From an uncultured bacterium (GTDB lineage Bacteria; Eisenbacteria; RBG-16-71-46; CAIMUX01; WJJG01), in assembly GCA_964585945.1 (NCBI GenBank), contig CAZPGB010000014.1:6912-70911 (forward strand): 64,000 nt of DNA, in the 5' to 3' direction. The notes under the pieces were generated by a model, which had not been told where the DNA came from, made no database searches, and worked only from the letters and a program-made list of their open reading frames with translations. How positions within the stretch are numbered: the first letter of the stretch is position 1; each line of letters begins with the position of its first letter. Positions 997-52,475 of the stretch are shown here, in pieces. The translations under genes were made by a program, and so were the position numbers.

Positions 997-3813
997 TCAT
1001 GAGCGCCACAGCCCTTTCGTAACTTGCACCACCAGAAGCGGAACGGCGCTGAATCCCAGAATCAGACGCCACCCGAGAAACGTTGGCGGGGCGAGCTTCA
1101 GGACCGAGGCGAGGGGCTCGAGCAGGATAGCCGCCAAGAGAAGGCCGAGACTGATCAGGATCGCGATCCAGACATAGGGGTTTCGCGTGACCTCGTTCAC
1201 AAACAGGCCCGAAGCACGGTCGCGCATGTTCAAGACGTGCCAGGTGCGTGCAAAGGCCAGCGTGAGGAAGGCGGTCGCGACGGCCGACTCCTGGCTCATG
1301 TCGTACCGATCGAGCGCCAGCCAGAACGCGGCCAGGACCGAGGCACTGATCAGCAGGCCGTAACCCAGGATTCCCAGCCAGTGTTGGGAGGTGATGATGG
1401 GCTCGTCACGGTCCCGCGGAGGACGGTTCATCACACCCGGCTGACCCTTTCCCAATCCCAGCGCCAGCGCGGGGAAGACGTCGCTGATGACGTTCAGGTA
1501 GAGGATCTGTAGGGGCAGCAGCGGGAGGGGCGCTCCCGCCAGCATGGCGAAGGCCACGATCATGATCTCACCGACGTTGCCGGAGAGCAGGTAAATGACG
1601 AACCGGCGGATGTTGTTGAAGATCGTCCGGCCGTGCTCCACCGCGGCGGAGATCGTGCGGAAGGAGTCGTCGCGCAACACGACGTCGGCGGCTTCGCGGG
1701 CCACCTGGGTGCCGCGGCGTCCCATGGCCACGCCGATGTCCGCCTTCTGCAGGGCAGGGGCGTCGTTGACGCCGTCGCCCGTCATCGCCACGATCGAGCC
1801 GCTCTCCTGGAATAGCGACACCAGATCCAGCTTCTGCTCGGGTGAAATGCGCGCGAAGACCGCCGTGTCGAGAAGCTCTCGTGCCTGACGTCGGTCGAGC
1901 TTCTCGGGCGGCTGAAGCTCTTCACCTTGAACCACCGAAGCGTCCTCATCCTCGATCAAGCCCAAGCGAAGCGCGATGTTGCGAGCGGTCATCGCCTGGT
2001 CGCCCGTGACCATGATCACCCGGATGCCCGCGCCGCGAAGCCGCGCGATGACCTCTTCGATGCCCCGTCGCGGCGGGTCCAGGAACCCGACCAATCCGAC
2101 GAGTGTGAGGTCCTCGAACGGCTCGACCGATTCTTGTTTCGAGCGCTTCTCCGCCATGGCCAGCATGCGCAGGCCCTGAGCGGCGGTCTCCTCCGTCGCC
2201 GTCAACCATGAACGGCGCTCGGAATCCGATAGCTTGCGTTCCTCCCCGTCGGGGGTGCGCATGCCACGGCACGCATCCAGAACGGCCTCCGGCGCGCCCT
2301 TGACGGCCACCCGCAGGCCCGATCGGTTTCGGTGGAAGGTGGCCATCATCTTCACGTCCGGGTCGAAGGGCCGTTCGTCGACGCGTGGGTTTTCCTCGAG
2401 CAGATCGTCCCGGCTCAGGCCCGCCCAATCCGCCGCCTTGAGCAGGGCCACCTCTTCCGGGTCGCCTTCCTCGCGTTCGTCATCCATCGAGGCGTTGTTG
2501 CACAAGCAGCCGATCTCCAGGACGGTGGCCAGAAGACGATGGTCCGACGCGTCGACGGATTGCCCCTCCTGCTGGAACGTCGCTTCTTCGTCCGAGCGAT
2601 CGATCCGGATCTGTTGAGCGTCTTCGCCGGCAGAGGAGAGGAAGAGCAGCCGTGAGACCTCCATGCGATTTTCCGTCAGCGTTCCGGTCTTGTCGGTGCA
2701 GATGGTGTTGGTCGATCCCAGGGTTTCAACCGCCGAGAGTCGGTTGACCACCGCCTGATGGGCCGCCATGCGCCACATCCCGCGCGCCAGCGCGATGGTG
2801 GCCACGATCGGCAGGCCCTCGGGGATCGCCGCCACGGCCAGTGCGATCGCCGTCTCGATAATCAGCAGGGTGTCTCGGTGGTGCAGGAGACCGACCACGA
2901 TGACCGCGGCGGCGATGCCCAACGTGACCCATATCAGCTTGCGACCCAGGTCGTTGAGCCGCTGTTCGAGCGGGGTCTCCTCGGGCTCGGCCTCTGCCAC
3001 CAGGGCCGAGATGCGGCCCAGTTCCGTGGCCATTCCCGTGGCGACGACGATCCCTTTGGCCGAGCCCTGCAAGACCGAAGTGCCTTTGTAGGCCATGTTT
3101 CGTTTGTCCGCCACGGCCGCTTCCGCGTCTACGGCTGCGTCTTGCTTGTCGACGGCGGCCGATTCGCCCGTGAGGGCCGATTCATCGGTCTGGAGCCGGC
3201 GGGTCTCGAGCAGACGGATGTCGGCCGCGACCACGTCGCCGCTCTGCAGCACGACCAGGTCACCCGGTACCAGTCGATGCGAGGCAACGCGGCGCTCGCG
3301 TCCGTCGCGCACCACCGTGGAGCGGGTTTGGCCGAGCTTCTGCAACGCTTCCATGGAACGGACGGCGCGCAGTTCTGTGAAGAAGCCGATCAGCACGTTG
3401 ATCAGGAGGGCGACAAGAATGGAAGCGCCTTCGAGCCATTGCCCGAAAATGAAGGAGAGGCCCCCCGCGGCCGCCAGCAGCAAGACGATCAGATTCTTCA
3501 TCTGATCCACGAAGATACTCACGGTGCTCCTCTGTCGACGGCGTTGGATGCGGTTTGGTCCGTGTCGCCGTCTCCTGCGGCGCACCTGTCCTGCGTCCAG
3601 GCCTTGATCGGCAGAGCCGTCCAGGGCGTCGAGAACCTCCTCGCCCGTCATGCTCCAGGGCGAGTCGACGGGCAGGTCCTCATGCGGGCGGGACGAATGG
3701 CTGGGATCTGGAGTGGATTCGATCTGTGATCCTCCGTTCATCCGTGCCTCGAGTTGCGGAAAGCCGAAGCTGTTCCGGGAGCTGCGGTGTGGTCGCAGAC
3801 CCGATGTGCCCAC
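997..3813 (-). CDS. Cation-transporting P-type ATPase (type II, Ca2+/Mg2+-like)
   Basis: ICTDKTGTLT phosphorylation motif, TGES, PEGLP in TM4, MTGDGVNDAPAL hinge, about 10 TM. The true start may be the internal Met at 3741 or 3651 (the ...GLDAGQVRRRR..GPN N-terminus is typical). Confidence 0.9.
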   Translation of the reverse strand: MGTSGLRPHRSSRNSFGFPQLEARMNGGSQIESTPDPSHSSRPHEDLPVDSPWSMTGEEVLDALDGSADQGLDAGQVRRRRRRHGPNRIQRRRQRSTVSIFVDQMKNLIVLLLAAAGGLSFIFGQWLEGASILVALLINVLIGFFTELRAVRSMEALQKLGQTRSTVVRDGRERRVASHRLVPGDLVVLQSGDVVAADIRLLETRRLQTDESALTGESAAVDKQDAAVDAEAAVADKRNMAYKGTSVLQGSAKGIVVATGMATELGRISALVAEAEPEETPLEQRLNDLGRKLIWVTLGIAAAVIVVGLLHHRDTLLIIETAIALAVAAIPEGLPIVATIALARGMWRMAAHQAVVNRLSAVETLGSTNTICTDKTGTLTENRMEVSRLLFLSSAGEDAQQIRIDRSDEEATFQQEGQSVDASDHRLLATVLEIGCLCNNASMDDEREEGDPEEVALLKAADWAGLSRDDLLEENPRVDERPFDPDVKMMATFHRNRSGLRVAVKGAPEAVLDACRGMRTPDGEERKLSDSERRSWLTATEETAAQGLRMLAMAEKRSKQESVEPFEDLTLVGLVGFLDPPRRGIEEVIARLRGAGIRVIMVTGDQAMTARNIALRLGLIEDEDASVVQGEELQPPEKLDRRQARELLDTAVFARISPEQKLDLVSLFQESGSIVAMTGDGVNDAPALQKADIGVAMGRRGTQVAREAADVVLRDDSFRTISAAVEHGRTIFNNIRRFVIYLLSGNVGEIMIVAFAMLAGAPLPLLPLQILYLNVISDVFPALALGLGKGQPGVMNRPPRDRDEPIITSQHWLGILGYGLLISASVLAAFWLALDRYDMSQESAVATAFLTLAFARTWHVLNMRDRASGLFVNEVTRNPYVWIAILISLGLLLAAILLEPLASVLKLAPPTFLGWRLILGFSAVPLLVVQVTKGLWRS

Positions 3814-3965
3814 CCCCTGCGTCCGAATGCGGCACCATTCTCAACCAGGGAGCGGAGCCGGCCCACCGGCGCATGCACCAATGCCCAGTCAGGGATGTCC
3901 CCCGACCTTCCCAGGGCGCAACCCGAATCTGCGGTGCCGTGAGAAGGAGAATGGAAGGGCGCCAC

Positions 3966-3989
3966 GGCCTGGGGGCTCACCCCCAGGCC
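3966..3989. promoter_or_regulatory. Perfect 10-bp-stem hairpin (GGCCTGGGGG-CTCA-CCCCCAGGCC) in the divergent intergenic region
   Basis: Read directly from the sequence. It lies between the divergently transcribed P-type ATPase and the eRF1-like gene. Confidence 0.3.
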
Positions 3990-4174
3990 GGATGGTGGAG
4001 ACACCCAGGCTACGCAAGCAATCGACCGGGTAGGTATGAGATCGGGTTTGATTCATTCTGACAGCACTTCACCGGGCCAGCGTGTGGCCGAAGCCGCTGG
4101 GCCGGTGAAGGGAGGAAGGCGTCCTCCAAGTGCAGTCCAAACCTGGGTGAAGCAGAGATGGAGGCGAGACGGCA

Positions 4175-5338
4175 ATGACGAGGATGCACAACGCACCGAG
4201 CAAGGACGAGTTTCAAGCGCTCTTTCAGGACCGAGGTTGGCCGCGCCTCTCGGTTTACACCCCAACGGGCCGCACGTCGGCGGAAGCCGAAGAGAGCCGC
4301 ATCCGGTTCAAGAACCAGATCCAGGAAGCGGCCGGACGGCTGCTGGCCGGGGGCCTGCGCATATCGGAGGTGCAGTCATTCCTGGCACCCGTGCGCACGA
4401 CGATGGAGGATGCGCTCTTCTGGCAGCACCAGACCGAGGCGCTCTGCATGTTCCTTTCCCCGAACGCGCTCCGGTACTATCGATTGCCCTACCGCGTGCC
4501 CGAGGTCGTCGTTGTTTCCGGCCGCTTCCATATCAAGCCCTTGATCCCCGTCTTGAAGGACGCGGAGCGCTTCTTCCTCCTGGCCGTTGGGCTCCGCAAC
4601 GTGCGCCTTTACGAAGGCACGTCGTTTGAGCTCCGTCCGTTGCCGCTGAACGACGACCTGCCGGCGGGTGTCGAGGAGCTTCAGCCGCGCGAGGATACCG
4701 AAACCGCTCTCCAGCTCCACACGACGAAGGGCCAAGGGGCTGGCGGTATCTTCCACGGGCACGGCGAGACCAAGGACGCCGCCCGTCAGAAGGAGCGCAT
4801 CCTGCGGTACTTCCAGATGGTGGACCAAGCGGTGTCCAAGAAGGTGGCCGGGCGACAGGAGCCACTCATCCTGGCGGGCATCGAGTATCTCTTACCGATC
4901 TACGAGCAGGCCAACAGCTATCCCCGCATTCACAAACACGGGATTCGAGTGAACGCGGACTCCATAAATGAACAAGAGTTGCATCGTCGCGCCCTTGAGA
5001 TCATGAAACCCATGCGCAGACAGAGGCACCAGGCACGCATCGAACAGTATCAGCAGATGCGGCTTCGCAAGCGCACGACCTCCAAGCTGGAGGAGGTGCT
5101 GCAGGCTGCGTCCGCCGGGCGCATCGAGACGCTCTGGGCCCGAGCGGACGAATACTGCTGGGGACGCTACGATCCCGAGACCGGTCGCTTGGATACGCAC
5201 CGGCAGCCCCAGCCTCGTGACGAGGATCTGATCGACGCGGCCACAGCCGAAGCCCTGCGGACAGGCGCCGAAGTGGTGTTGTCGACCAGGGAGCGGATGC
5301 CGGCCGAAGCGACCGTCGCCGCCGTTCTGCGGTATTGA
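4175..5338 (+). CDS. Hypothetical protein with eRF1/Pelota-like (baeRF-type) features
   Basis: 387 aa. Central segment FFLLAVGLRNVRLYEG resembles the start of the eRF1/Dom34 central domain. C-terminus ...AEVVLSTRERMPAEATVAAVLRY resembles the eRF1/Pelota domain-3 terminus (...AILRY). GGIFHGHGE loop. GGAGG about 11 nt upstream. Confidence 0.5.
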   Translation: MTRMHNAPSKDEFQALFQDRGWPRLSVYTPTGRTSAEAEESRIRFKNQIQEAAGRLLAGGLRISEVQSFLAPVRTTMEDALFWQHQTEALCMFLSPNALRYYRLPYRVPEVVVVSGRFHIKPLIPVLKDAERFFLLAVGLRNVRLYEGTSFELRPLPLNDDLPAGVEELQPREDTETALQLHTTKGQGAGGIFHGHGETKDAARQKERILRYFQMVDQAVSKKVAGRQEPLILAGIEYLLPIYEQANSYPRIHKHGIRVNADSINEQELHRRALEIMKPMRRQRHQARIEQYQQMRLRKRTTSKLEEVLQAASAGRIETLWARADEYCWGRYDPETGRLDTHRQPQPRDEDLIDAATAEALRTGAEVVLSTRERMPAEATVAAVLRY

Positions 5339-31740: not shown

Positions 31741-32616
31741 CTACTTGCCCAGAGACTCGCGGCTGGCGATGATGTCCAGCAGTTCGGCGGTGATGGCCTG
31801 CTGGCGCTGCTGGTTGTGCCGTTTGGTCAGCTCCTCTAGGCGCTCGCCGATGTCCTTTTCGGCCACCTGCATGGAGGCCAATCGGCTGGCCTGTTCGCTG
31901 GCCAACGATTCGGCCAGGGCGCGGAAGACCACCACGAAGAGATACTGCTGGATCAGGCGTCCGGTGAGCTTGCCCCTGTCCATGCGATACATGGGCAGCG
32001 AGCGGGACTCCCAGGGCCGTTGGGCGAGCTCCTGCAGCCATGTCATGTCGAGTGGCCACAGGGGAACTCTTTCAGGTTCGTAGGATGCTCCCGAGCGCCG
32101 GCGGTTGTGGAAGAGCAGAATGCGACCCGCGCCGTTTTCCCGGCGCCACTTCTCCGCCTGCACCAGGATTCGGGCTACCGAATCGGTGATGCCTGTCGCC
32201 GAATGGGGCACCTCCAACCGGCGCTCTGTCTCGAGCCCGGCGTTGTGCAGCCGAGCGGCCACACGCTCGCCGACGGCCAGAACGACCGCCGGACCACTGC
32301 GATCCTGGGTTAGGTGACGCTCCGCGAAGGCGGCGATGTCGTCGTTGAATTGCCCGCACATGCCCTGGTCGGAGCCGACGACGATGGCGGCCACCTGCGA
32401 CCCGGTGGGCTCCAGTTCGCGCGGGCGGCCGGCGTGTGAGTCGCGTAGGACGATCTGGAGCCCCATCTCCACCGTCTCGCGCCAGAGTCCGACGGCGTCC
32501 GCGGCGCGCTCGTACTGACGAATGCTCGCGGCGGCCAGCGCCTTCATGCTCTTGACGACCGACTGCAGGTCCTCGGTGCTCTCCAATCGTCTCTTGAGAG
32601 CGTTGAGCGTCTCCAT
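31741..32616 (-). CDS. atpG: F-type ATP synthase gamma subunit
   Basis: Gamma N- and C-terminal helices (...LKRRLESTEDLQSVVKSMKALAA...; ...ITAELLDIIAS). Confidence 0.9.
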   Translation of the reverse strand: METLNALKRRLESTEDLQSVVKSMKALAAASIRQYERAADAVGLWRETVEMGLQIVLRDSHAGRPRELEPTGSQVAAIVVGSDQGMCGQFNDDIAAFAERHLTQDRSGPAVVLAVGERVAARLHNAGLETERRLEVPHSATGITDSVARILVQAEKWRRENGAGRILLFHNRRRSGASYEPERVPLWPLDMTWLQELAQRPWESRSLPMYRMDRGKLTGRLIQQYLFVVVFRALAESLASEQASRLASMQVAEKDIGERLEELTKRHNQQRQQAITAELLDIIASRESLGK

Positions 32617-32623
32617 GGCCGCC

Positions 32624-34171
32624 TCATCGATCCATCTCGCCGAGGACTCGGCGTGCCTGGTTCAGGACCGCTTCCTGGTCCTCGGAGGCGAAATCCTCTC
32701 CGGCGAGAATGCGCTCGCTCTGATCCTCCAGGCGACGCGGTACTTCGGTCTGAATCTCCTCCACCGCGTCGGCCACGCGCTCGAGCGGCAGGTCGTCGAA
32801 GAGCCCCTGATTGAGCGCCAGCAGAACCGCGATCTGCTCCGGAACGGAGCGAGGGTGGTACTGGGGCTGTTTGAGCACCTCGCGCACGCGTCGTCCACGG
32901 GCCAACGTGCGCTGCGTGTCTTCATCCAAGCGCGCGCCGAACCGGGCGAAGGACTCGAGCTCTTCGAACTGGGAATATGCCAGCCGAAGGTCCCCGGCCA
33001 CGGCCCGGTACGCTTTCAACTGGGTCTTGCCGCCCACGCGCGAGACCGACCGGCCCACATCGACCGCGGGGAGCACCCCGCGGCGCATCAAATCGGGCGA
33101 CAGATAGATCTGCCCGTCGGTGATCGAGATCAGGTTGGTGGGAATGTAGGAGGAGATGTTCTGGGCCTGGGTCTCGATGATCGGCAGGGCCGTGACCGAG
33201 CCTCCGCCCTTCCTGTCGCGCACGTGCGTGGCCCGCTCGAGCAGGCGCGCGTGGATGTAGAAGATGTCCCCGGGGTATGCTTCGCGGGCGGGCGGGCGCC
33301 GCAGCAGGAGAGAGAGCTCCCGGTAGGCGCGCGCGTGGCGCGAGAGGTCGTCGAAGACCACCAGGGCATCTTCACCGCGCTCCATGTAGTACTCGGCCAT
33401 GCAGATGGCTGCATAGGGGGCGATGTACTTGAGGCCCGGCGGCTCCTCCCCTGCCGCGAAGACCACCGTGCAGTGGTCCATGGCATGGTGGGCACGTAGG
33501 TCCGCGACCACGCGCGCCACGGCGGTCGCCCGCAGACCGATGGCGCAGTAGATGCAGCGCACGTTCTTGTCACGTTGATGGATCATCGTATCGACGGCGA
33601 TGGCCGTCTTGCCGGTCTGGCGGTCGCCGAGGATCAGCTCGCGCTGGCCGCGTCCGATGGGGATCAGCGCATCCACGACCCGCAGTCCGGTCTGCAGGGG
33701 GACCGAGACCGGCGCGCGGTCGAGGATGGCCGGGGCATCACGCTCGATGGGCCGACGCTCGTCAGCATCGACCGGCCCGCCATGGTCGAGCGGCCGACCG
33801 GTGGGATCGACCACGCGGCCGAGCAGACCGTCGCCGACGGGGACGTCGACGACGCGGCCCGTGCGCCGCACCGTGCTCCGCGCGCGGATCTGGTCCCACG
33901 TGTCCAACAGAACGACGCCCACCCGGTCGGGACGAAGATTGAGCGCCATCCCGCGCAGGCCGCCCTGGAAGCGAACCAGCTCTTCGGCGCCGACACCGGG
34001 CAGCCCGTCCACATGCGCCACCCCGCGGCCCACGTCACGCACGACGCCGACCTCCTCCACGCGCAGCCGGGGCGGATCGCCTTCCAGGGCTTCTTCCAGC
34101 GAAGCGGCCACGGGCGGCAGCACGCGCTCCAGGGCGCCGCGGTCGGGATTCCTTCGCCCGGCGTCAGCCAT
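32624..34171 (-). CDS. atpA: F-type ATP synthase alpha subunit
   Basis: [11 protein letters not shown] Walker A. Start at the internal ATG with GAGGAG RBS, overlapping atpF by 8 nt. Confidence 0.9.
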
Positions 34172-35003
34172 CGCGCTGCTCCTCGTCTCGGGACTCGTCC
34201 TCCTGGTCGGACCGCTCGCGGGGCCCGGCCTGGTGCTTGGAATCCTGCATTGCGGAGAGCTTGGAGCCGACCCGCTGCTCCAGGTCATCCAGGTAGCGAT
34301 CGAGGCTCCATGAAAGTCGATGTCCGGCCGCGGCGACCTCGATCCCGCAGATCAGATCCTGGTCACGCGTGAATTCGATCTCGGCCGATGCACCCATCGT
34401 CTCCTTGAGAGCCGCACGGATCTCGTCGGCCGATTCCTGGGGGAGTTTCGCGGAGCTGCGCACGAGAAGCTTGCCCTCCTTCTCTCCGGCCGCCCGTACA
34501 AAGGCCCGGGTCTGCTCATCATCGGCTTCCTTCAGCTTCCGAACGAATGCGCCCGACATGCGGCGCTCCACCTGGCTGTCGGCCATCTCCCGCAGCGCCC
34601 GGCGTGCGATGGCGATCACCTGCTGTGCCGTCTCGCGCCTCAGGTCCCCGAGGAACCGATCCTGCTGGCGCTTCAGGGCTTCGACCCAGCGCTCGCGCTG
34701 TGCAGCGATTTCCTCTCGCGCCCCGCGGAGTAACCGTTGGCGCTCCTCTTCGGCCTCCTGGCGGGCCTCGCCCAGAAGGTCCTCACGCTGCTCGTCCAGC
34801 TCCCGCTGCTGACGCTGGTATTCGGCCTTCTCCTCGTTGGCCTCGTCCACCCGGCGCTTGGCCTCCTCGCCACGATCGGAGATCCGCCGTTCACGTTCAT
34901 CCATGGCGTGGACGATGCGATCGTAGAGGAGGCGCTTGAGCAAGAAGACCAGAATCGCGAAGTTGACGATTTGGGCCGCGAATGTGAGCCAATCGATCTG
35001 CAC
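34164..35003 (-). CDS. atpF: F-type ATP synthase b subunit, extended (N-ATPase type, delta-like C-terminal region)
   Basis: N-terminal TM helix, long charged coiled coil, extra C-terminal domain. No separate delta gene in the operon. Confidence 0.75.
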
Positions 35004-35014
35004 GTTGGGCCGTC

Positions 35015-35284
35015 CTATTGCTGGGTGAAGAAGCTCCAGAAGGGATTGGCGAAGATCAGGATCACCGCCACGACGAAACAGTAGATGGCGGTCGATTCGA
35101 TCATGGCCATCCCCACGAACAGCGTCCGCGTGATGGTGTTGGATTCATCGGGCTGCTGGGCCAGGGCGGTCAGGGCCTGGGCTAGCGCGCGACCCTCGCC
35201 CAACGCCGGTCCGATGGACCCGATGGCGATCGTGAGTCCGCTGATGACAATCGATCCCAGCGCCACGATATCTGTGCTTTCCAT
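35015..35284 (-). CDS. atpE: F-type ATP synthase c subunit with Na+-binding signature
   Basis: 89 aa. GPALGEG in helix 1 and MIESTAIY in helix 2 (ESTxxY as in the I. tartaricus Na+ c-ring). RBS AAGGAGG. Confidence 0.85.
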   Translation of the reverse strand: MESTDIVALGSIVISGLTIAIGSIGPALGEGRALAQALTALAQQPDESNTITRTLFVGMAMIESTAIYCFVVAVILIFANPFWSFFTQQ

Positions 35285-35313
35285 CTGCAAGCCTCCTTGA
35301 GGGTGTTTCCCGC

Positions 35314-35985
35314 CTATGCGTTCTGTGTTCGCGCGGCGGAGGCGATATAAACCATGGCCAAAACGGCGAAGATGTAGGCGTGGATCTGCCCGATCAGCAG
35401 CTCGAGCGCCTGCATGACCGCCGGAAAGATGAAAGGGGTCACGCTGAGGAGCACGGCGACGATCAGCGTGCCGCTCATCACATTGCCGAACAGCCGGACG
35501 GCGAGCGCCAAGGTGCGCGACAACTCGCCGAGCACGTGAAAGGGGAGCATCAACGGCGAGGGTTGAACGTAGTGCCGTAGGTAGCCACCCACGCCGCGCT
35601 CGGCGATGCCGTAGGCCGGCACGGCGAAGAAGACGCACATCGCCAGGGCGGCCGTGGTGGAGAGCGAGCCGGTCGGCGGGTGGTAGCCGGGCACGATGGC
35701 CAGCAGATTGGAGAGCGAGATGAACAGGAACAGCGTGCCCAGGAACGGGAGGTACCTGGCCGTGCGGCCGCCGGTCACCTCCTCAATCTGATCGCGCATG
35801 TACCCGATGACGGCTTCCAGAAGGGACTGCCAACGGGACTGCGGGGCCTCCACTTCCAACCGACGAGTGGCGAGATAAGCCAACAGGACGAGCAATGCCA
35901 TCACGAGCCAACTGAAGAGGATGGTTGCGTTCAGGCGCAGCGGACCCCACTGGGCGATCAGAATGGCGTCGGGATCGATCTCCAT
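35314..35985 (-). CDS. atpB: F-type ATP synthase a subunit
   Basis: Conserved ...LAVRLFGNVMSG... (stator Arg) and LLIGQIHAYIFAVL. Start taken at the internal Met (MEIDPDAIL). Confidence 0.8.
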   Translation of the reverse strand: MEIDPDAILIAQWGPLRLNATILFSWLVMALLVLLAYLATRRLEVEAPQSRWQSLLEAVIGYMRDQIEEVTGGRTARYLPFLGTLFLFISLSNLLAIVPGYHPPTGSLSTTAALAMCVFFAVPAYGIAERGVGGYLRHYVQPSPLMLPFHVLGELSRTLALAVRLFGNVMSGTLIVAVLLSVTPFIFPAVMQALELLIGQIHAYIFAVLAMVYIASAARTQNA

Positions 35986-36026
35986 CTGCGACTCCCACTT
36001 GTGGTTGGGCCGGACCTGGTCCGGCG

Positions 36027-36317
36027 CTAGACTCTGGGCGCCCTGGGCGCCCAGCGGCGCATCAAGACGATGCGGGCCAGCACGAACCCGGCCAGAACGG
36101 CCAGCACTTCCGGCCATCCCCATCGAATGGCGATGATTGCGATGATCCAGATCACGACCGCAAAGCGGAACAACAGGGCGCCGGCGGTCATCAGAGCGGG
36201 CCAACGCATGGTCGGCAGCGAGCGCGCGGTGAGATAGAGCACACCGAAGTAAAATCCGCCCAGCGCCATGCCGATGACCGCGGAAAGGACCAGCAGCAGC
36301 ACGTCAAGCATCGTCAC
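36027..36317 (-). CDS. atpR: N-ATPase accessory membrane protein AtpR
   Basis: 96 aa, 3 TM with membrane-embedded Arg. Position between atpQ and atpB as in N-ATPase operons. Confidence 0.55.
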   Translation of the reverse strand: MTMLDVLLLVLSAVIGMALGGFYFGVLYLTARSLPTMRWPALMTAGALLFRFAVVIWIIAIIAIRWGWPEVLAVLAGFVLARIVLMRRWAPRAPRV

Positions 36318-36643
36318 CCGGCTCCTCCTCCCGGTGAATCTCCCGGCGTTCGCGCCGCACCCAGAACCAAGCGTTCAAACAGCCGGCAATGACCCCGATG
36401 ATCAGGAAGGTCAACGTCCAGGAGATGGTGGTGCCCGTCCCGGTGACACGGGAATCCAGCCAGATTCCGACAATGACCCCGATCACCGTGGGGATGGCCA
36501 CAGCCCAACCGACGGTACCGAAGGTGCCCAGACCGAACCAGAGGCTGCGGTGCTTGCGTCGCAGGGCGCGAAGCTTCCGCTCCCGCTTTTCATGCGCTGC
36601 CTTGCGAAGCTGCTGCCCAGGGGTGTCGTTGTGACCCGCTGCG

Positions 36644-36651
<8 letters not shown>
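36304..36651 (-). CDS. atpQ: N-ATPase accessory membrane protein AtpQ
   Basis: Small 2-3 TM protein directly after atpC. Start overlaps the atpC stop. Confidence 0.5.
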
Positions 36652-38564
<1,913 letters not shown>

Positions 38565-47923: not shown

Positions 47924-49105
47924 ATGTTCTGGGAAAAGATGTCCGCTTGGACTGACATCAGTCTGGAATCGTTACGTGGTTGGGGCATCGCTGCGGGATT
48001 CGCGGTCGGCGCTGTGCTGGTCGGTCTAGTTCTGCACAAGATCCTGACCGGTCTGCTGCGCCGCTGGGGCGACCGCGAGGCGCCTCTGTTCGGAGGGCTT
48101 CGTCTGCACCTGGATCCTCTGGGCGGACCGTTGAAGTGGCTCCTGCCGGGTCTGTGCTTGACGGCTGTCGTGCCCGTCATGCCCTTGTCCGGCGGCGTGC
48201 GGGACGCCCTGGCGCATGCCGTTACGCTCTGGGTGATCGCGGCCGCAGCCGCCACGCTGATCGCCGGTTTAGCCGTGCTGCGTGAAGCGATCGCCGGTCG
48301 CTACACCGTGGACGTCAAGGACAACCTCCGCGCGCGCCAGGTGCAGACCCAGCTCCGCGTGATTCACCGCGTGGTGGCCGCCGTCATCATCGGGGTCACC
48401 CTGGCGGTCATGTTGACGACCTTCGAGCAGGTCAAGGAGGTCGGCGTCAGCCTGCTGGCCTCGGCGGGCGTGCTCGGGATCATCCTCGGCTTCGCGGCCC
48501 AACGCTCTGTGGCTACCCTGCTGGCCGGCGTCCAGATCGCCCTCACCCAGCCGATCCGCTTGGACGACGTCGTCATCGTGGAGGGCGAGTGGGGATGGAT
48601 CGAGGAGATCACGCTGACCTACGTGGTCGTCCGGATCTGGGATCAGCGACGCCTGATTGTGCCCATCCAGCAGTTCATCGAGAAGCCGTTCCAGAACTGG
48701 ACCCGGGTCAGCGCGGACATCCTCGGCACGGTTTACATCTACGCCGACTACACCTTGCCGGTGTCCGGGCTGCGAACCGAGCTCGAGCGGATCGTCCGGG
48801 AGTCGTCCGATTGGGACGAACGGGTGGTGAACATGCAGGTCACCGGCGCCGGCGATCAGACGGTGGAGATCCGCGCCCTGATGAGTGCCGCGGACTCTCC
48901 GGCAGCGTGGAACCTGCGGTGTCGCGTGCGCGAGCAGCTCATCGAGTACCTGCAGCGGGAACACCCCCGGAGCCTGCCGCGCACGAGGGTATCGCTCGAG
49001 TCGCGGGCGGAATCGCCGCGGCCGACGTCAGCGGGCGAACGAGCGACGGGCGCGACCGAGCAGATCGAAGCGCCTGGCGAGGTGGATCGAGCCCAGAACG
49101 AGTAG
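47924..49105 (+). CDS. Mechanosensitive ion channel, MscS family
   Basis: TM helices followed by the conserved beta-domain ...VIVEGEWGWIEEITLTYVVVRIWDQRRLIVPI... Low-complexity tail. Confidence 0.85.
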   Translation: MFWEKMSAWTDISLESLRGWGIAAGFAVGAVLVGLVLHKILTGLLRRWGDREAPLFGGLRLHLDPLGGPLKWLLPGLCLTAVVPVMPLSGGVRDALAHAVTLWVIAAAAATLIAGLAVLREAIAGRYTVDVKDNLRARQVQTQLRVIHRVVAAVIIGVTLAVMLTTFEQVKEVGVSLLASAGVLGIILGFAAQRSVATLLAGVQIALTQPIRLDDVVIVEGEWGWIEEITLTYVVVRIWDQRRLIVPIQQFIEKPFQNWTRVSADILGTVYIYADYTLPVSGLRTELERIVRESSDWDERVVNMQVTGAGDQTVEIRALMSAADSPAAWNLRCRVREQLIEYLQREHPRSLPRTRVSLESRAESPRPTSAGERATGATEQIEAPGEVDRAQNE

Positions 49106-49252
49106 CACCATGATCGGCCCGGTGTAGAGCATGAAGCGGGTTTGGCGCTGGTTTTCGTGTTCGGCGCGCAGCCGTGCGGCTTCGTCACGAATGCGCGTGA
49201 GATGGCCTAGCACGTCGGCATAGCCGTACCACCAGGCGTAGTCCGGACTCAT
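49028..49252 (-). CDS. Possible small single-TM protein, ATGA-coupled to the multiheme cytochrome gene
   Basis: Start ATG overlaps the cytochrome stop (ATGA). One C-terminal TM helix and a basic tail. Overlaps the MscS 3' end by 78 nt on the opposite strand. Confidence 0.35.
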   Translation of the reverse strand: MSPDYAWWYGYADVLGHLTRIRDEAARLRAEHENQRQTRFMLYTGPIMVLLVLGSIHLARRFDLLGRARRSFAR

Positions 49253-50487
49253 GTGGAAGGCGCCCTTGTAGGACTTGAGTGTCCCCGCTTGGCGCGATGC
49301 TCCTCAGTGTCGGTGATGTCCTCCAACTGCCCGACGGCGGGCTGGACGCCCATGCCCCAGATGATCTTGCGGGTCATGTTGTGGCTGGATGATCGGGCCC
49401 CGTCGGGGGCCACGTAGAGCATGTGGCAATACGCGCAGGTGGGGCCCTCGTAGGCGGCATCCGCCAGCGGAAGGCTCCAATCCCACCGGCGCCCGTCCGA
49501 AGCGAAGATCGCCCCGTGCTTGGAGGTGCTGTAGGCCTCCCAGTTCGGATGGTCGGGCCCCATATGGCAGGTCATGCACGACTGCGCCTGGCGCGCCTCG
49601 GAGGCCGTGAAGCGGTGCCGCGTGTGGCAGGCGATGCAGCCGTTGCGATAGGTGAGGCTCGACATGTCATCGTACTGCTGGCTTTCGATGTCCCAGTACT
49701 TCTGCATGGTGGCGCCGGCTTGGGCATGACACGGGTCGCAACCCACCTCCATGACCTTGCGGGGCATTTGATCGTAATGGGGCACGCCGATGTTGCGCTC
49801 CCAATTCCCCCCGATCTCTCCGGGGCCATAGCTGTGTCCGAGATCGAGCACGTGCTCCTGATAGATCTGGACGTGGCAGGTGGAGCAGACCACCTCGGCC
49901 ACCCGTCCCTTGGTTTGCGTGATCAAGGTGTGGTCGAGGCCATGGCAGTCGGAGCATCGATCGGCTTGGTCGATATCCGTCGCGATGCGCGGGTTCTGCC
50001 TTCCGGGGCGATGCATGAACGAGGTCACATACTGCGAGACAATGGTTGGGTTGTGCTTTCGGTGGCACTCGAGGCACTTCGCCGGTTCCTGCTCGCCCGT
50101 GGGAGGTGAGAATCGATGCGCCGGGCCGGCCGGGGCGGTGTCGACATACGCGTAGACCTGGGAAAGCTCCTTTTCGTCGATGGCCTGTTCGGGGAACGGC
50201 GGCATCTTTGCGCGGGGATTGCGCACCTGGTCTTTGAATGCGCCTGGCAACAGATCGGTGGACGCCAGGTCCGGACCAACGCCGCCGCGACCGCCGATGC
50301 CATGGCAGCCGATGCAACCCTTGGAGATGTAGAGCCGTTCACCTGCGGCGACGCCCCACGGGGGATTCTCCGCCCGGAGCGGGGATCCGTTGGCAACCAC
50401 GAGCACGACGAGGAGCGCCAACAGGCAGGCGAGGGCCGAGCGCCGCGGGGGGAGCGTTGTTGGACGAATCGGCATGGCGCATTCCAT
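49249..50487 (-). CDS. Multiheme c-type cytochrome (8 CXXCH): N-terminal class-I mono-heme domain + 7-heme domain
   Basis: CIGCH...MPPF first domain. Then CLECH, CSDCH, CSTCH, CDPCH, CIACH, CMTCH, CAYCH. Signal peptide. Confidence 0.8.
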   Translation of the reverse strand: MECAMPIRPTTLPPRRSALACLLALLVVLVVANGSPLRAENPPWGVAAGERLYISKGCIGCHGIGGRGGVGPDLASTDLLPGAFKDQVRNPRAKMPPFPEQAIDEKELSQVYAYVDTAPAGPAHRFSPPTGEQEPAKCLECHRKHNPTIVSQYVTSFMHRPGRQNPRIATDIDQADRCSDCHGLDHTLITQTKGRVAEVVCSTCHVQIYQEHVLDLGHSYGPGEIGGNWERNIGVPHYDQMPRKVMEVGCDPCHAQAGATMQKYWDIESQQYDDMSSLTYRNGCIACHTRHRFTASEARQAQSCMTCHMGPDHPNWEAYSTSKHGAIFASDGRRWDWSLPLADAAYEGPTCAYCHMLYVAPDGARSSSHNMTRKIIWGMGVQPAVGQLEDITDTEEHRAKRGHSSPTRAPST

Positions 50488-50855: not shown

Positions 50856-52475
50856 ATGCGGGTCGGAATCGCCGCCGATCATGCGGGCCTCGCCCTGAAG
50901 GCGAAGCTCAGCGCGCTCATCGAAGAGCTGGGTCACGAGACCGTGGACTTCGGCGCCTACCGGCCTGAGCCGCAAGACGACTATCCGGACTACGTGGCTC
51001 CGATGGGAAAGGCGCTGGCCTCCGGGGAGATCGAACGAGGCATCGCGATCTGCGGCAGTGGGGTGGGCGCATGCGTGGTGGCCAATAAGTTCCCGGGCGT
51101 GCGCGCGGGGCTGATCACGGAAGCATACTCCGCTCAGCAAGGTGTCGAGCACGATGACATGAACGTCCTCTGCCTGGGCGGACGGGTCACCGGCGAGGAC
51201 CTCGCCTGGGATCTCGTCAAGATCTTCCTGGACGCGGTGTTCACGGAACACCCGCGCCATGTTCGCCGCCTGGAGAAGATCCGGGCACTGGAAAAGGAGA
51301 TCGGCGCAATGAACACGAATCCCTTGCACGGCATCACGGAGCTGGGGCAGAGCATCTGGCTGGACTATCTACACCGGAACATGTTGGAGGACGGTGAGCT
51401 GCAGCAGTGGATCACACGAGATGGGATTCGCGGCGTCACCTCGAATCCGACCATCTTTCAGAAGGCCATGGGCGATGCCGACGCCTACGGTGAAGCGATT
51501 GACAGACTGCACGGCGAGGGCCACACGGGTCGCGAGATCTATCGGCGCCTGAGCGTGGAGGACGTCCAAAGAGCTGCGGACGCCTTCCATCCGTGCCACG
51601 TCCAGCACCAGGGACGCCACGGCTTCGTGAGCCTCGAGGTGGATCCCGGGCTTGCCCACGACACCGAGAGCACCATCGCCGAAGCCCGCGAGCTCTGGCA
51701 GATGGTGGGCAGGTCGAACCTCTACGTCAAGGTGCCCGCAACCGAAGCGGGCCTTCCGGCCATCCGGCGTCTGACGGCCGAAGGCATCAATGTGAACGTG
51801 ACCCTGCTCTTCGGATTGTCGCGCTATCGGAAGGTGGCCGAAGCCTATCTGGAAGGCCTGCGCGAACGGCTGCGGGATGGTCAACCCATGAACGAGCTCT
51901 CCTCCGTGGCGAGTTTCTTCCTCAGTCGAATCGATGCCCTGGTGGATCCGGTGCTGGAAGCCAAGAGCGCCGAGAACGACTTGACCGCGCGCTTGGCCGC
52001 CGAGCTCCGCGGACAGGTTGCGATCGCGTCCGCCCGACAGGCTTATCAGATCTACCGGGAGCTCTTCACCAGCGAGGGCTTCGCCGATTTGGCGGAGGCG
52101 GGCGCGCGACCGCAGCGGCTGGTTTGGGCGAGCACGGGGACCAAGAACCCGGACTACTCGGATGTGAAGTACGTGGAGGCGCTGATCGGTCCCGACACGG
52201 TGGTGACCGCCCCGCGCGAGACACTGGATGCGTTTCGCGACCACGGCGAGCCGGCCGCGCGTCTGGAGCACGACATCGATCGCGCGCGCGACGTATTCGA
52301 GCAACTGCCCGTGGTGGGCATCGACATCGATGTCGTGACGCGGCAGCTTGAAGAAAAGGGCGTCGAGACGTTCGCCGCGTCTTTTCAGAAGCTCCTGCGG
52401 ACGATCGAAGAGCGGCTCGAGAGCGTGGCGACGCGTTCGACAGGCTCCGCACGAGCACGCGCCGGCCGGGGTTGA
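50856..52475 (+). CDS. rpiB/tal: Fusion protein: ribose-5-phosphate isomerase B (N-terminal about 150 aa) + transaldolase (C-terminal about 385 aa)
   Basis: N-terminal MRVGIAADHAG...ICGSGVGACVVANKFPGVRAG (RpiB/LacAB). C-terminal NPLHGITELGQSIWLDYL...TSNPTIF...KVP (transaldolase). Confidence 0.85.
   Translation: MRVGIAADHAGLALKAKLSALIEELGHETVDFGAYRPEPQDDYPDYVAPMGKALASGEIERGIAICGSGVGACVVANKFPGVRAGLITEAYSAQQGVEHDDMNVLCLGGRVTGEDLAWDLVKIFLDAVFTEHPRHVRRLEKIRALEKEIGAMNTNPLHGITELGQSIWLDYLHRNMLEDGELQQWITRDGIRGVTSNPTIFQKAMGDADAYGEAIDRLHGEGHTGREIYRRLSVEDVQRAADAFHPCHVQHQGRHGFVSLEVDPGLAHDTESTIAEARELWQMVGRSNLYVKVPATEAGLPAIRRLTAEGINVNVTLLFGLSRYRKVAEAYLEGLRERLRDGQPMNELSSVASFFLSRIDALVDPVLEAKSAENDLTARLAAELRGQVAIASARQAYQIYRELFTSEGFADLAEAGARPQRLVWASTGTKNPDYSDVKYVEALIGPDTVVTAPRETLDAFRDHGEPAARLEHDIDRARDVFEQLPVVGIDIDVVTRQLEEKGVETFAASFQKLLRTIEERLESVATRSTGSARARAGRG

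Follow-up and report, generated by a model that had tools for sequence, protein, structure and literature searches.

Do positions 49028 to 50487 of the stretch studied here hold two genes, or what is left of one? The stretch, called the window below, comprises 64,000 nt from an uncultured Eisenbacteria genome (assembly GCA_964585945.1, contig CAZPGB010000014.1, positions 6,912 to 70,911 of the forward strand). Its initial annotation, made from the letters alone, placed there a stand-alone octaheme cytochrome, formed by a class-I cytochrome c domain and a seven-heme module, whose stop codon overlapped the ATG of a small membrane open reading frame (ORF) regarded as a coupled gene. Our results indicate that both ORFs are probably the two ends of one nine-heme, membrane-anchored gene of the hydroxylamine oxidoreductase (HAO) type, broken by an out-of-frame deletion of ~295 nt, and that the locus is most likely a recent pseudogene. 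As judged from the alignments, the two ORFs have a common origin, the deletion has a defined position and size, the reading frame is shifted across it, and the resulting arrangement is absent from intact relatives. On these sequence grounds, what the locus holds is a damaged copy of a gene of a known family, HAO, and a two-gene module is rejected.

The cytochrome ORF and its detached C-terminus

The cytochrome ORF (49249..50487, minus strand) encodes 412 aa, comprising a signal peptide, a class-I cytochrome c domain, HAO hemes 1-7 and a nine-residue out-of-frame tail before the stop codon; the public gene call starts at 50475 and yields a protein of 408 aa (P0001) that is 100% identical to the ORF of the window. 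Eight CxxCH motifs were found, at residues 58, 138, 178, 201, 250, 284, 304 and 351. The first lies, as had been annotated, in a class-I domain (CIGCH...MPPF), which we localised at 50128..50358 of the minus strand (residues ~44-120), with CIGCH at residue 58 and a likely Met ligand in PRAKMPPFP. PF13442 matched residues 46-115 with 48.3 bits (cut-off 27, E=1.3e-12) and PF00034 matched the ORF with 25.5 bits (cut-off 21.3, E=3.4e-5). M80 and P81 of KMPPFP were invariant across the family, so that a single CxxCH, a downstream Met and a domain match together identify a class-I cytochrome c.

The other seven CxxCH motifs were covered by PF13447 (105.9 bits, cut-off 21.9, E=2.9e-30), which assigns the multiheme module to the HAO family, one of those against which the annotation had proposed to classify it. 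Eight CxxCH motifs in 412 aa together with a profile match of E ~1e-30 are far above chance expectation. The core (49285..50082, minus strand, residues 136-401) could be aligned with Kustc0458 of Kuenenia stuttgartiensis, with the HAO of Nitrosomonas europaea (NeHAO) and with Kuenenia HOX (KsHOX), and motifs 2-8 of the ORF aligned with HAO hemes 1-7. The catalytic heme-4 motif CDPCH was found at residue 250 (49726-49740, minus strand) and the Asp-His pair of CHMGPDH at 49549-49554 of the same strand, D297 and H298 being invariant in the family; CHMGPDHPNWEAY of the window aligned to CHSGVDHNNWEAY of NeHAO and CHMGPDHPDAESY of Kustc0458, which identifies a heme-4 site with its Asp-His pair. The motif CMTCHMGPDHPNWEAYSTSKHG was also present in the 412-aa ORF. 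Among solved structures the ORF matched 6h5l_A with E=1.7e-29 (query 136-384 to chain 78-309 of 517), 4n4j_A with E=2.3e-23 and 4fas_A with E=4.7e-23, again placing it in the HAO family. The NCBIfam hydrazine dehydrogenase model gave 83 bits against a cut-off of 900, showing that the gene is no equivalog of that curated enzyme.

Two elements that intact homologues carry were not found in the polypeptide. In intact homologues, one chain provides the CxxCH motifs for all eight hemes of the HAO core, and the ORF of the window provides those for hemes 1-7 only; the C-terminal helical (trimer-forming) domain is not contiguous, ~98 residues being deleted and the remaining 83 codons lying in another frame. 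The description as an octaheme protein thus holds for the number of motifs, but the presumed seven-heme module consists of hemes 1-7 of an eight-heme core from which heme 8 and ~98 residues have been deleted.

The missing end was recognised in the small ORF. This ORF (49028..49252, minus strand, 74 aa) has the properties first reported for it, namely a single transmembrane (TM) segment, an ATG overlapping the cytochrome TGA (ATGA at 49252..49249) and a position antisense to the 26 codons at the 3'-end of mscS. Rather than a coupled gene, it proved to be most of an orphaned C-terminal remnant of the cytochrome gene (49028..49282, minus strand), which consists of TLKSYKGAFH plus the 74-aa ORF and is 81% identical, in the other frame, to residues 486-557 of P0002, the nearest full-length homologue (564 aa, 76% identity). 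The former C-terminal TM anchor helix, FMLYTGPIMVLLVLGSIHL, occupies 49079..49135 of the minus strand (residues 40-58 of the small ORF) and has a hydropathy of 1.8 over 19 residues; F536, M537, G541, P542, M544, V545 and L546 of the anchor region are conserved in the family. GC content at third codon positions in the remnant was 0.77, which is coding-like. The ATG of the small ORF corresponds to a conserved internal Met codon of GAFH-M-SPDY (M497, at least 90% conserved), and the invariant His of GAFH (H496) sits upstream of this ATG and is translated in neither ORF.

When the window was searched by tblastn with P0002, residues 24-388 matched 50373..49279 in frame -2, gap-free and with 80% identity, residues 486-557 matched 49285..49070 in frame -1 with 81% identity, and residues ~389-486 had no counterpart anywhere in the 64 kb. 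The junction, GGGACAC/TC, was localised at 49277..49287 of the minus strand, where the left frame corresponds to homologue residue ~388 and the right one, in the other frame, to residue ~487. Compared with the DNA of P0002, the codons AAG CGG GGA CAC are followed directly by TC AAG TCC TAC AAG, so that K-R-G-H is joined to (L)-K-S-Y-K. The missing DNA amounts to ~295 nt, that is, 98 codons plus 1 nt, and the junction microhomology is at most 5 nt. Homologue residues 389-486 include DHMVRVCQTCH…EREYFDMFFFSN, and the lost stretch holds the heme-8 CxxCH (VCxTCH, residues 393-397, with C393, C396 and H397), the invariant H412, E476 and F483-F485, as well as most of the C-terminal helical domain.

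Downstream of the junction, the LKSYKGAFHM codons are read in the wrong frame as the tail SSPTRAPST, followed by TGA (49249..49278, minus strand). The ATGA overlap arises because the shifted frame reads CAC ATG AGT one base off, as ACA TGA; this apparent coupling is a by-product of the frame shift and therefore no evidence of an operon. The retained parts are each ~80% identical to P0002 and have no further stops or indels, and for this reason the deletion, if real, would be recent.

According to this scheme, the ancestral gene would have encoded a protein of ~560 aa exported to the periplasm, with a signal peptide, a class-I cytochrome c, an eight-heme HAO core, a C-terminal helical domain and one TM anchor, giving nine hemes in total. 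An internal deletion of ~295 nt would then have removed the heme-8 motif and ~98 residues of the helical domain and shifted the frame, so that translation would run through nine out-of-frame codons and end at a TGA overlapping a Met codon that is conserved within the C-terminal segment. That segment would then be listed by an ORF finder as an 'ATGA-coupled' membrane ORF of 74 aa. The truncated product would be non-functional, because heme 8, H412, the E476-F485 block, the untranslated H496 and most trimer-forming helices are gone. H412 and H496, both invariant, are candidate axial ligands, and both are missing from the product.

Homologous loci and alternatives to the proposed recent pseudogene

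A search of 5.8 billion proteins (E<=1e-5) yielded 1,318 homologues, and family counts were made on the best 120. Nearly all of these were 555-618 aa long, the short exceptions being two contig-end fragments (P0049 and P0096), the 526-aa P0019 and the P0001 protein of the window, which was the only complete truncated protein among them. Nine CxxCH motifs were found in 116 of the 120 and the motif H...DY.WW.G.A in 117. In the full-length homologues (P0003, P0007 and P0017 were compared in addition to P0002), TEEHRAKR is followed by (D/N/A)(H/E)M(V/I)(R/K)(V/I/L)CxxCH, the ninth CxxCH, which corresponds to HAO heme 8, and then by the helical domain. Their C-termini carry LKSYKGAFHMSPDYAWWYGYA and then a TM helix, which together are the 'small ORF' of the window; the end pattern was FFFSNLKSYKGAFHMSPDYAWWYGYA...FMLYTGPLMVL or, in its longer form, EREYFDMFFFSNLKSYKGAFHMSPDYAWWYGYAEVLGHLTRIRDEA.RLR......RT.FMLYTGPLMVL. 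The homologues came mainly from Rokubacteria/Methylomirabilota and Gemmatimonadota, and relatives were found in Rokubacteria/Methylomirabilota, Gemmatimonadota/Longimicrobiales, Dadabacteria, Eisenbacteria, Binatia, Myxococcota and others.

In a survey with one genome per species, 261 stretches encoding relatives were obtained, from which 79 loci were taken, 61 of them uncut by a contig end; ORF integrity was judged in the tblastn frame. A single intact ORF with nine CxxCH motifs and the C-terminal motif was present in 56 of the 61 complete loci, one more was intact with a motif variant (L069), three were frameshifted (L070, L074 and L076) and one had decayed, with in-frame stops and two deletions (L084). 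Neither the deletion of the window nor a genuine separate small gene occurred in any of the 61. The expectation that the small ORF might be conserved downstream of homologous cytochromes was thus not borne out: its counterpart is the C-terminus of a single nine-heme ORF in the 56 intact loci, and it becomes separate only in frameshifted copies such as L085.

Searches with the small ORF itself led to the same result. No Pfam or NCBIfam model matched it, and an exact look-up found no record of it as a called gene. With phmmer, 14 matches were obtained against 1.84 billion representative proteins; most were C-termini of HAO-like proteins or contig-end fragments, several still carried the upstream EREYFDMFFF.NLKSYKGAFHM, and no conserved stand-alone family was found among them. 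The sole stand-alone look-alike was P0126 (69 aa), encoded on L085 (ENA ERZ28567193 scaffold_204966), an unrelated metagenomic contig of 896 nt with the family gene at 250-863. There, a 1-nt frameshift in the FDMFFF T-run gives a shifted frame, KAPST*, which ends at the same TGA over the same Met codon, and the gene calls consist of a 135-aa PF13447 ORF overlapping the 69-aa 'small ORF' by ATGA. The ACA-TGA artefact was therefore observed twice independently, in the window and in L085. More generally, whenever a lesion located before the FH-M-SPDY codons moves translation into one particular frame, reading terminates at ACA-TGA and a spurious ATGA-coupled small ORF results.

Other damaged copies were seen as well. 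L084 (JAWODW010000052.1, ~3761-5335, from the Longimicrobiales metagenome-assembled genome BLK5-2.bin.65) is an independently decayed family copy with two in-frame stops; it lacks the HAO heme-1 region and the initial Cys of heme 2, and its EREYFDMFFF is preceded by a second internal deletion. P0124 (258 aa), one of the 14 phmmer matches, has an in-frame internal deletion that joins the heme-4 region (…GATDAPYWD) without any spacer to YAWWYGYAE. The single frameshifts of L070, L074 and L076, which are in species-representative genomes, may equally be real lesions or sequencing or assembly errors. The family seems to have been lost repeatedly.

We infer that the lesion in the window is real and recent, and the chance that the deletion is real is high. 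In the Logan assembly of run SRR7048225, which was made with a different assembler, the junction was reproduced exactly: contig _7081 matches 5,247 nt of the window (54475 to 49229) without a single difference and passes the junction by ~55 nt. A second Logan contig, carrying mscS, ends at 49250, 35 nt short of the junction.

Several observations weigh against a real and inactivating deletion. The Logan contigs have their ends 35-55 nt 3' to the junction and share no more than 22 nt (49229-49250), less than k-1, which suggests that local coverage near the junction is low and that few reads may support it. The loss of function is deduced from family conservation, and the upstream ORF is intact over 401 in-frame residues and has a signal peptide.

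The explanation that survives best besides a genuine pseudogene, although we consider it unlikely, is an assembly artefact or a minority allele, by which the organism would have an intact nine-heme gene and the deletion would stem from reads that are chimeric or rare, or the assembler would have picked the variant of a subpopulation. The source is a metagenome-assembled genome, the ends of both Logan contigs near the junction point to thin coverage, and suspicious lesions also occur in metagenomic relatives, namely the 1-nt frameshift of L085, the in-frame deletion of P0124 and the frameshifts of L070, L074 and L076. Two different assemblies, however, contain an identical junction, and the missing segment is absent elsewhere in the 64 kb. 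A repeat-collapse artefact is impossible, because the microhomology of at most 5 nt is far shorter than any assembly k-mer. A bubble formed by full-length and deleted alleles does not fit the Logan pattern either, in which the contig on the mscS side stops before reaching the junction; the mscS-carrying Logan contigs gave no evidence of a second full-length allele in the same sample, the mscS-side contig ending before the junction.

Less probable still is a functional split or pruned enzyme, that is, a working soluble eight-heme cytochrome (cytochrome c plus HAO hemes 1-7) with the 74-aa ORF separately translated through the ATGA as its membrane partner. The upstream ORF does retain the signal peptide, the heme-4 motif and the Asp-His pair, the small ORF has an ATG start, a stop overlap and a coding-like base composition, and multiheme cytochromes have evolved through module loss (PMC9250108). 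Nevertheless, no intact relative has the truncated plus small-ORF architecture (none of the 61 complete loci and none of the 120 top homologues), a conserved internal Met codon supplies the ATG, and the frame shift by itself creates the ATGA, as it does in the unrelated L085. The deletion is out of frame, removes the invariant C393, C396, H397 and H412 and leaves the invariant H496 untranslated, and the small ORF has neither a domain match nor a stand-alone family among the representative proteins searched. It is equally improbable that the truncated product is made and used as a naturally pruned eight-heme HAO derivative without heme 8 and the trimer helices, with the anchor perhaps expressed through the accidental ATGA; if that were true, the pruned enzyme would represent an early stage of module loss in a multiheme cytochrome.

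Genomic neighbourhood

The remnant is convergent with mscS (47924..49105, plus strand), an unrelated gene for an MscS-family channel (PF00924, E=6.6e-12). The overlap between mscS and the 74-aa ORF is 78 nt and corresponds to the last 26 mscS codons. The 3'-end of mscS (48970-49105, plus strand) encodes a low-complexity Pro/Ser/Arg/Glu tail of ~45 residues with no domain match, and the convergent overlap probably reflects a poorly constrained mscS tail in a genome of 65% GC, where antisense stops are rare. When the MscS, RpiB-transaldolase, MBL-fold and DUF212 proteins were compared by tblastn with the 79 loci, zero matches were obtained; synteny of mscS with the cytochrome was rejected and the overlap is considered incidental because it has no such support in the homologous loci.

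By Pfam, the window carries a Na/H exchanger, a ZIP protein, an MBL-fold protein and MscS on one flank and an RpiB-transaldolase fusion, DUF212, YtxH and DAGK proteins on the other. The absence of nearby partner reductases and other redox genes, which had been pointed out initially, was corroborated: no redox gene was found by Pfam among the neighbours and no other CxxCH ORF was found in the 64 kb. No quinol-dehydrogenase or cytochrome partner of the NapC/NrfH or HURM type is adjacent to the gene in the window, where the neighbours have transport and housekeeping functions. Scans for promoters/terminators, tRNAs and Rfam families, covering both the region and the window, detected nothing relevant.

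Clustering of the flanking ORFs of the 79 loci revealed no conserved partner gene, no cluster exceeding 10 loci, and spurious antisense ORFs of high GC content made up several of the larger ones. In ~6 of the 79 loci, a NirK-like two-domain multicopper oxidase (PF07731/PF07732) was encoded on the strand of the intact HAO-like gene and ~145 nt upstream of it, as in L021 (71-1303) and ~5 others, all from Gemmatimonadota. A neighbour of this type fits N-oxide metabolism, though no neighbour is universal. A COX2-cytochrome c fusion and a hemerythrin-domain protein recurred near the family gene in a few other loci.

Two further features of the window were noted. A single 539-aa ORF at 50856-52475 (plus strand) joins ribose-5-phosphate isomerase B (PF02502) and transaldolase (PF00923), and is divergent from the cytochrome gene across a 368-nt spacer. 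By reading of the sequences only, a run of ORFs at ~31741-38522 (minus strand) resembles F-type ATPase subunits at the N-termini (beta, epsilon, small ORF(s), a, (c), b, alpha and gamma), an order typical of N-ATPase operons.

Relation of the intact family to known enzymes

The best solved match of the family was Kustc0458 (HAOr) of K. stuttgartiensis (6H5L, chain A), which P0002 matched with E=2.7e-45, followed by NeHAO, KsHOX and hydrazine dehydrogenase (HDH). Kustc0458 and the family share the order of hemes 1-7(8), the CHMGPDHP..E.Y..SKHG motif, a nearly identical C-terminal motif, YKG.[AF]H...D..WW.G.A....TRI..EA.RLR, and an extra c-type heme carrier associated with the HAO core. Kustc0458 has no Tyr-heme cross-link, converts nitrite to NO without oxidising hydroxylamine and forms a complex with the diheme Kustc0457 (PMC8042395). 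In contrast to the Kuenenia system, where the carrier is this separate subunit, the family has a monoheme class-I domain fused at its N-terminus and a TM anchor at its C-terminus; the two show low overall identity and align only locally, and the copy in the window additionally differs from Kustc0458 in its frame shift and in the loss of heme 8 and most of the helical domain.

The oxidative HAOs, NeHAO (1FGJ/4FAS) and KsHOX (4N4J), belong to the same PF13447 family and share the catalytic Asp-His pair, and the eight-heme core of intact homologues aligned to them through heme 8 and the C-terminal helices (E=5.9e-37 and 2.1e-34, respectively). By spacing, the family differs from them in having an invariant Trp, as Kustc0458 has a Trp, at position +8 counted from the conserved His, which is occupied by the cross-linking Tyr in NeHAO (Tyr467) and KsHOX. 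The spacing of Tyr467 was counted in the alignment and agrees with the published numbering, and the Tyr of KsHOX is presumed to be the cross-link residue from the same +8 spacing. In the HMMER gapped alignment to KsHOX, this Tyr instead faces position +9 of the family, where 114 homologues have Y, two have L and one has F. Tyr residues close by, at +5 (invariant), +9 and +11, may also be cross-link partners, and this, together with an alignment that is local only, weakens the reductive assignment of the family. In the window, the segment concerned and the core are not part of one translated product. A further difference from the oxidative HAOs is the lack of nearby amo, cycA/cycB or other genes for HURM partners.

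The window gene is closest to an uncharacterised clade of ~560-aa proteins annotated as 'c-type cytochrome / hydroxylamine dehydrogenase', which have the same domain order and to which it is 56-80% identical over the retained parts. Members of this clade are intact single ORFs with nine CxxCH motifs, and the copy in the window differs from them by the 295-nt deletion. There is no dedicated NCBIfam model for this cytochrome c-fused, TM-anchored HAOr-like clade, and full-text literature searches found no description of it. From their sequences, the intact members would be periplasmic enzymes tethered to the membrane that reduce nitrite, NO or hydroxylamine in the manner of HAOr, and in which the fused class-I cytochrome c domain would replace a separate electron-carrier subunit, in the role of Kustc0457.

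As regards the locus itself, the result is mainly a correction: the apparent octaheme cytochrome and its seemingly coupled small membrane gene are a trap for annotation that arises from an internal deletion, and the public gene call (408 aa, 'c-type cytochrome'-like) contains the same error. As regards the family, it was found in at least 261 species-level genomes, many of them from soil and groundwater, and the intact clade could be an overlooked enzyme for the turnover of nitrite, NO or hydroxylamine. The intact nine-heme, TM-anchored, cytochrome c-fused proteins would be a reasonable biochemical target for the study of NO and hydroxylamine turnover in soil.

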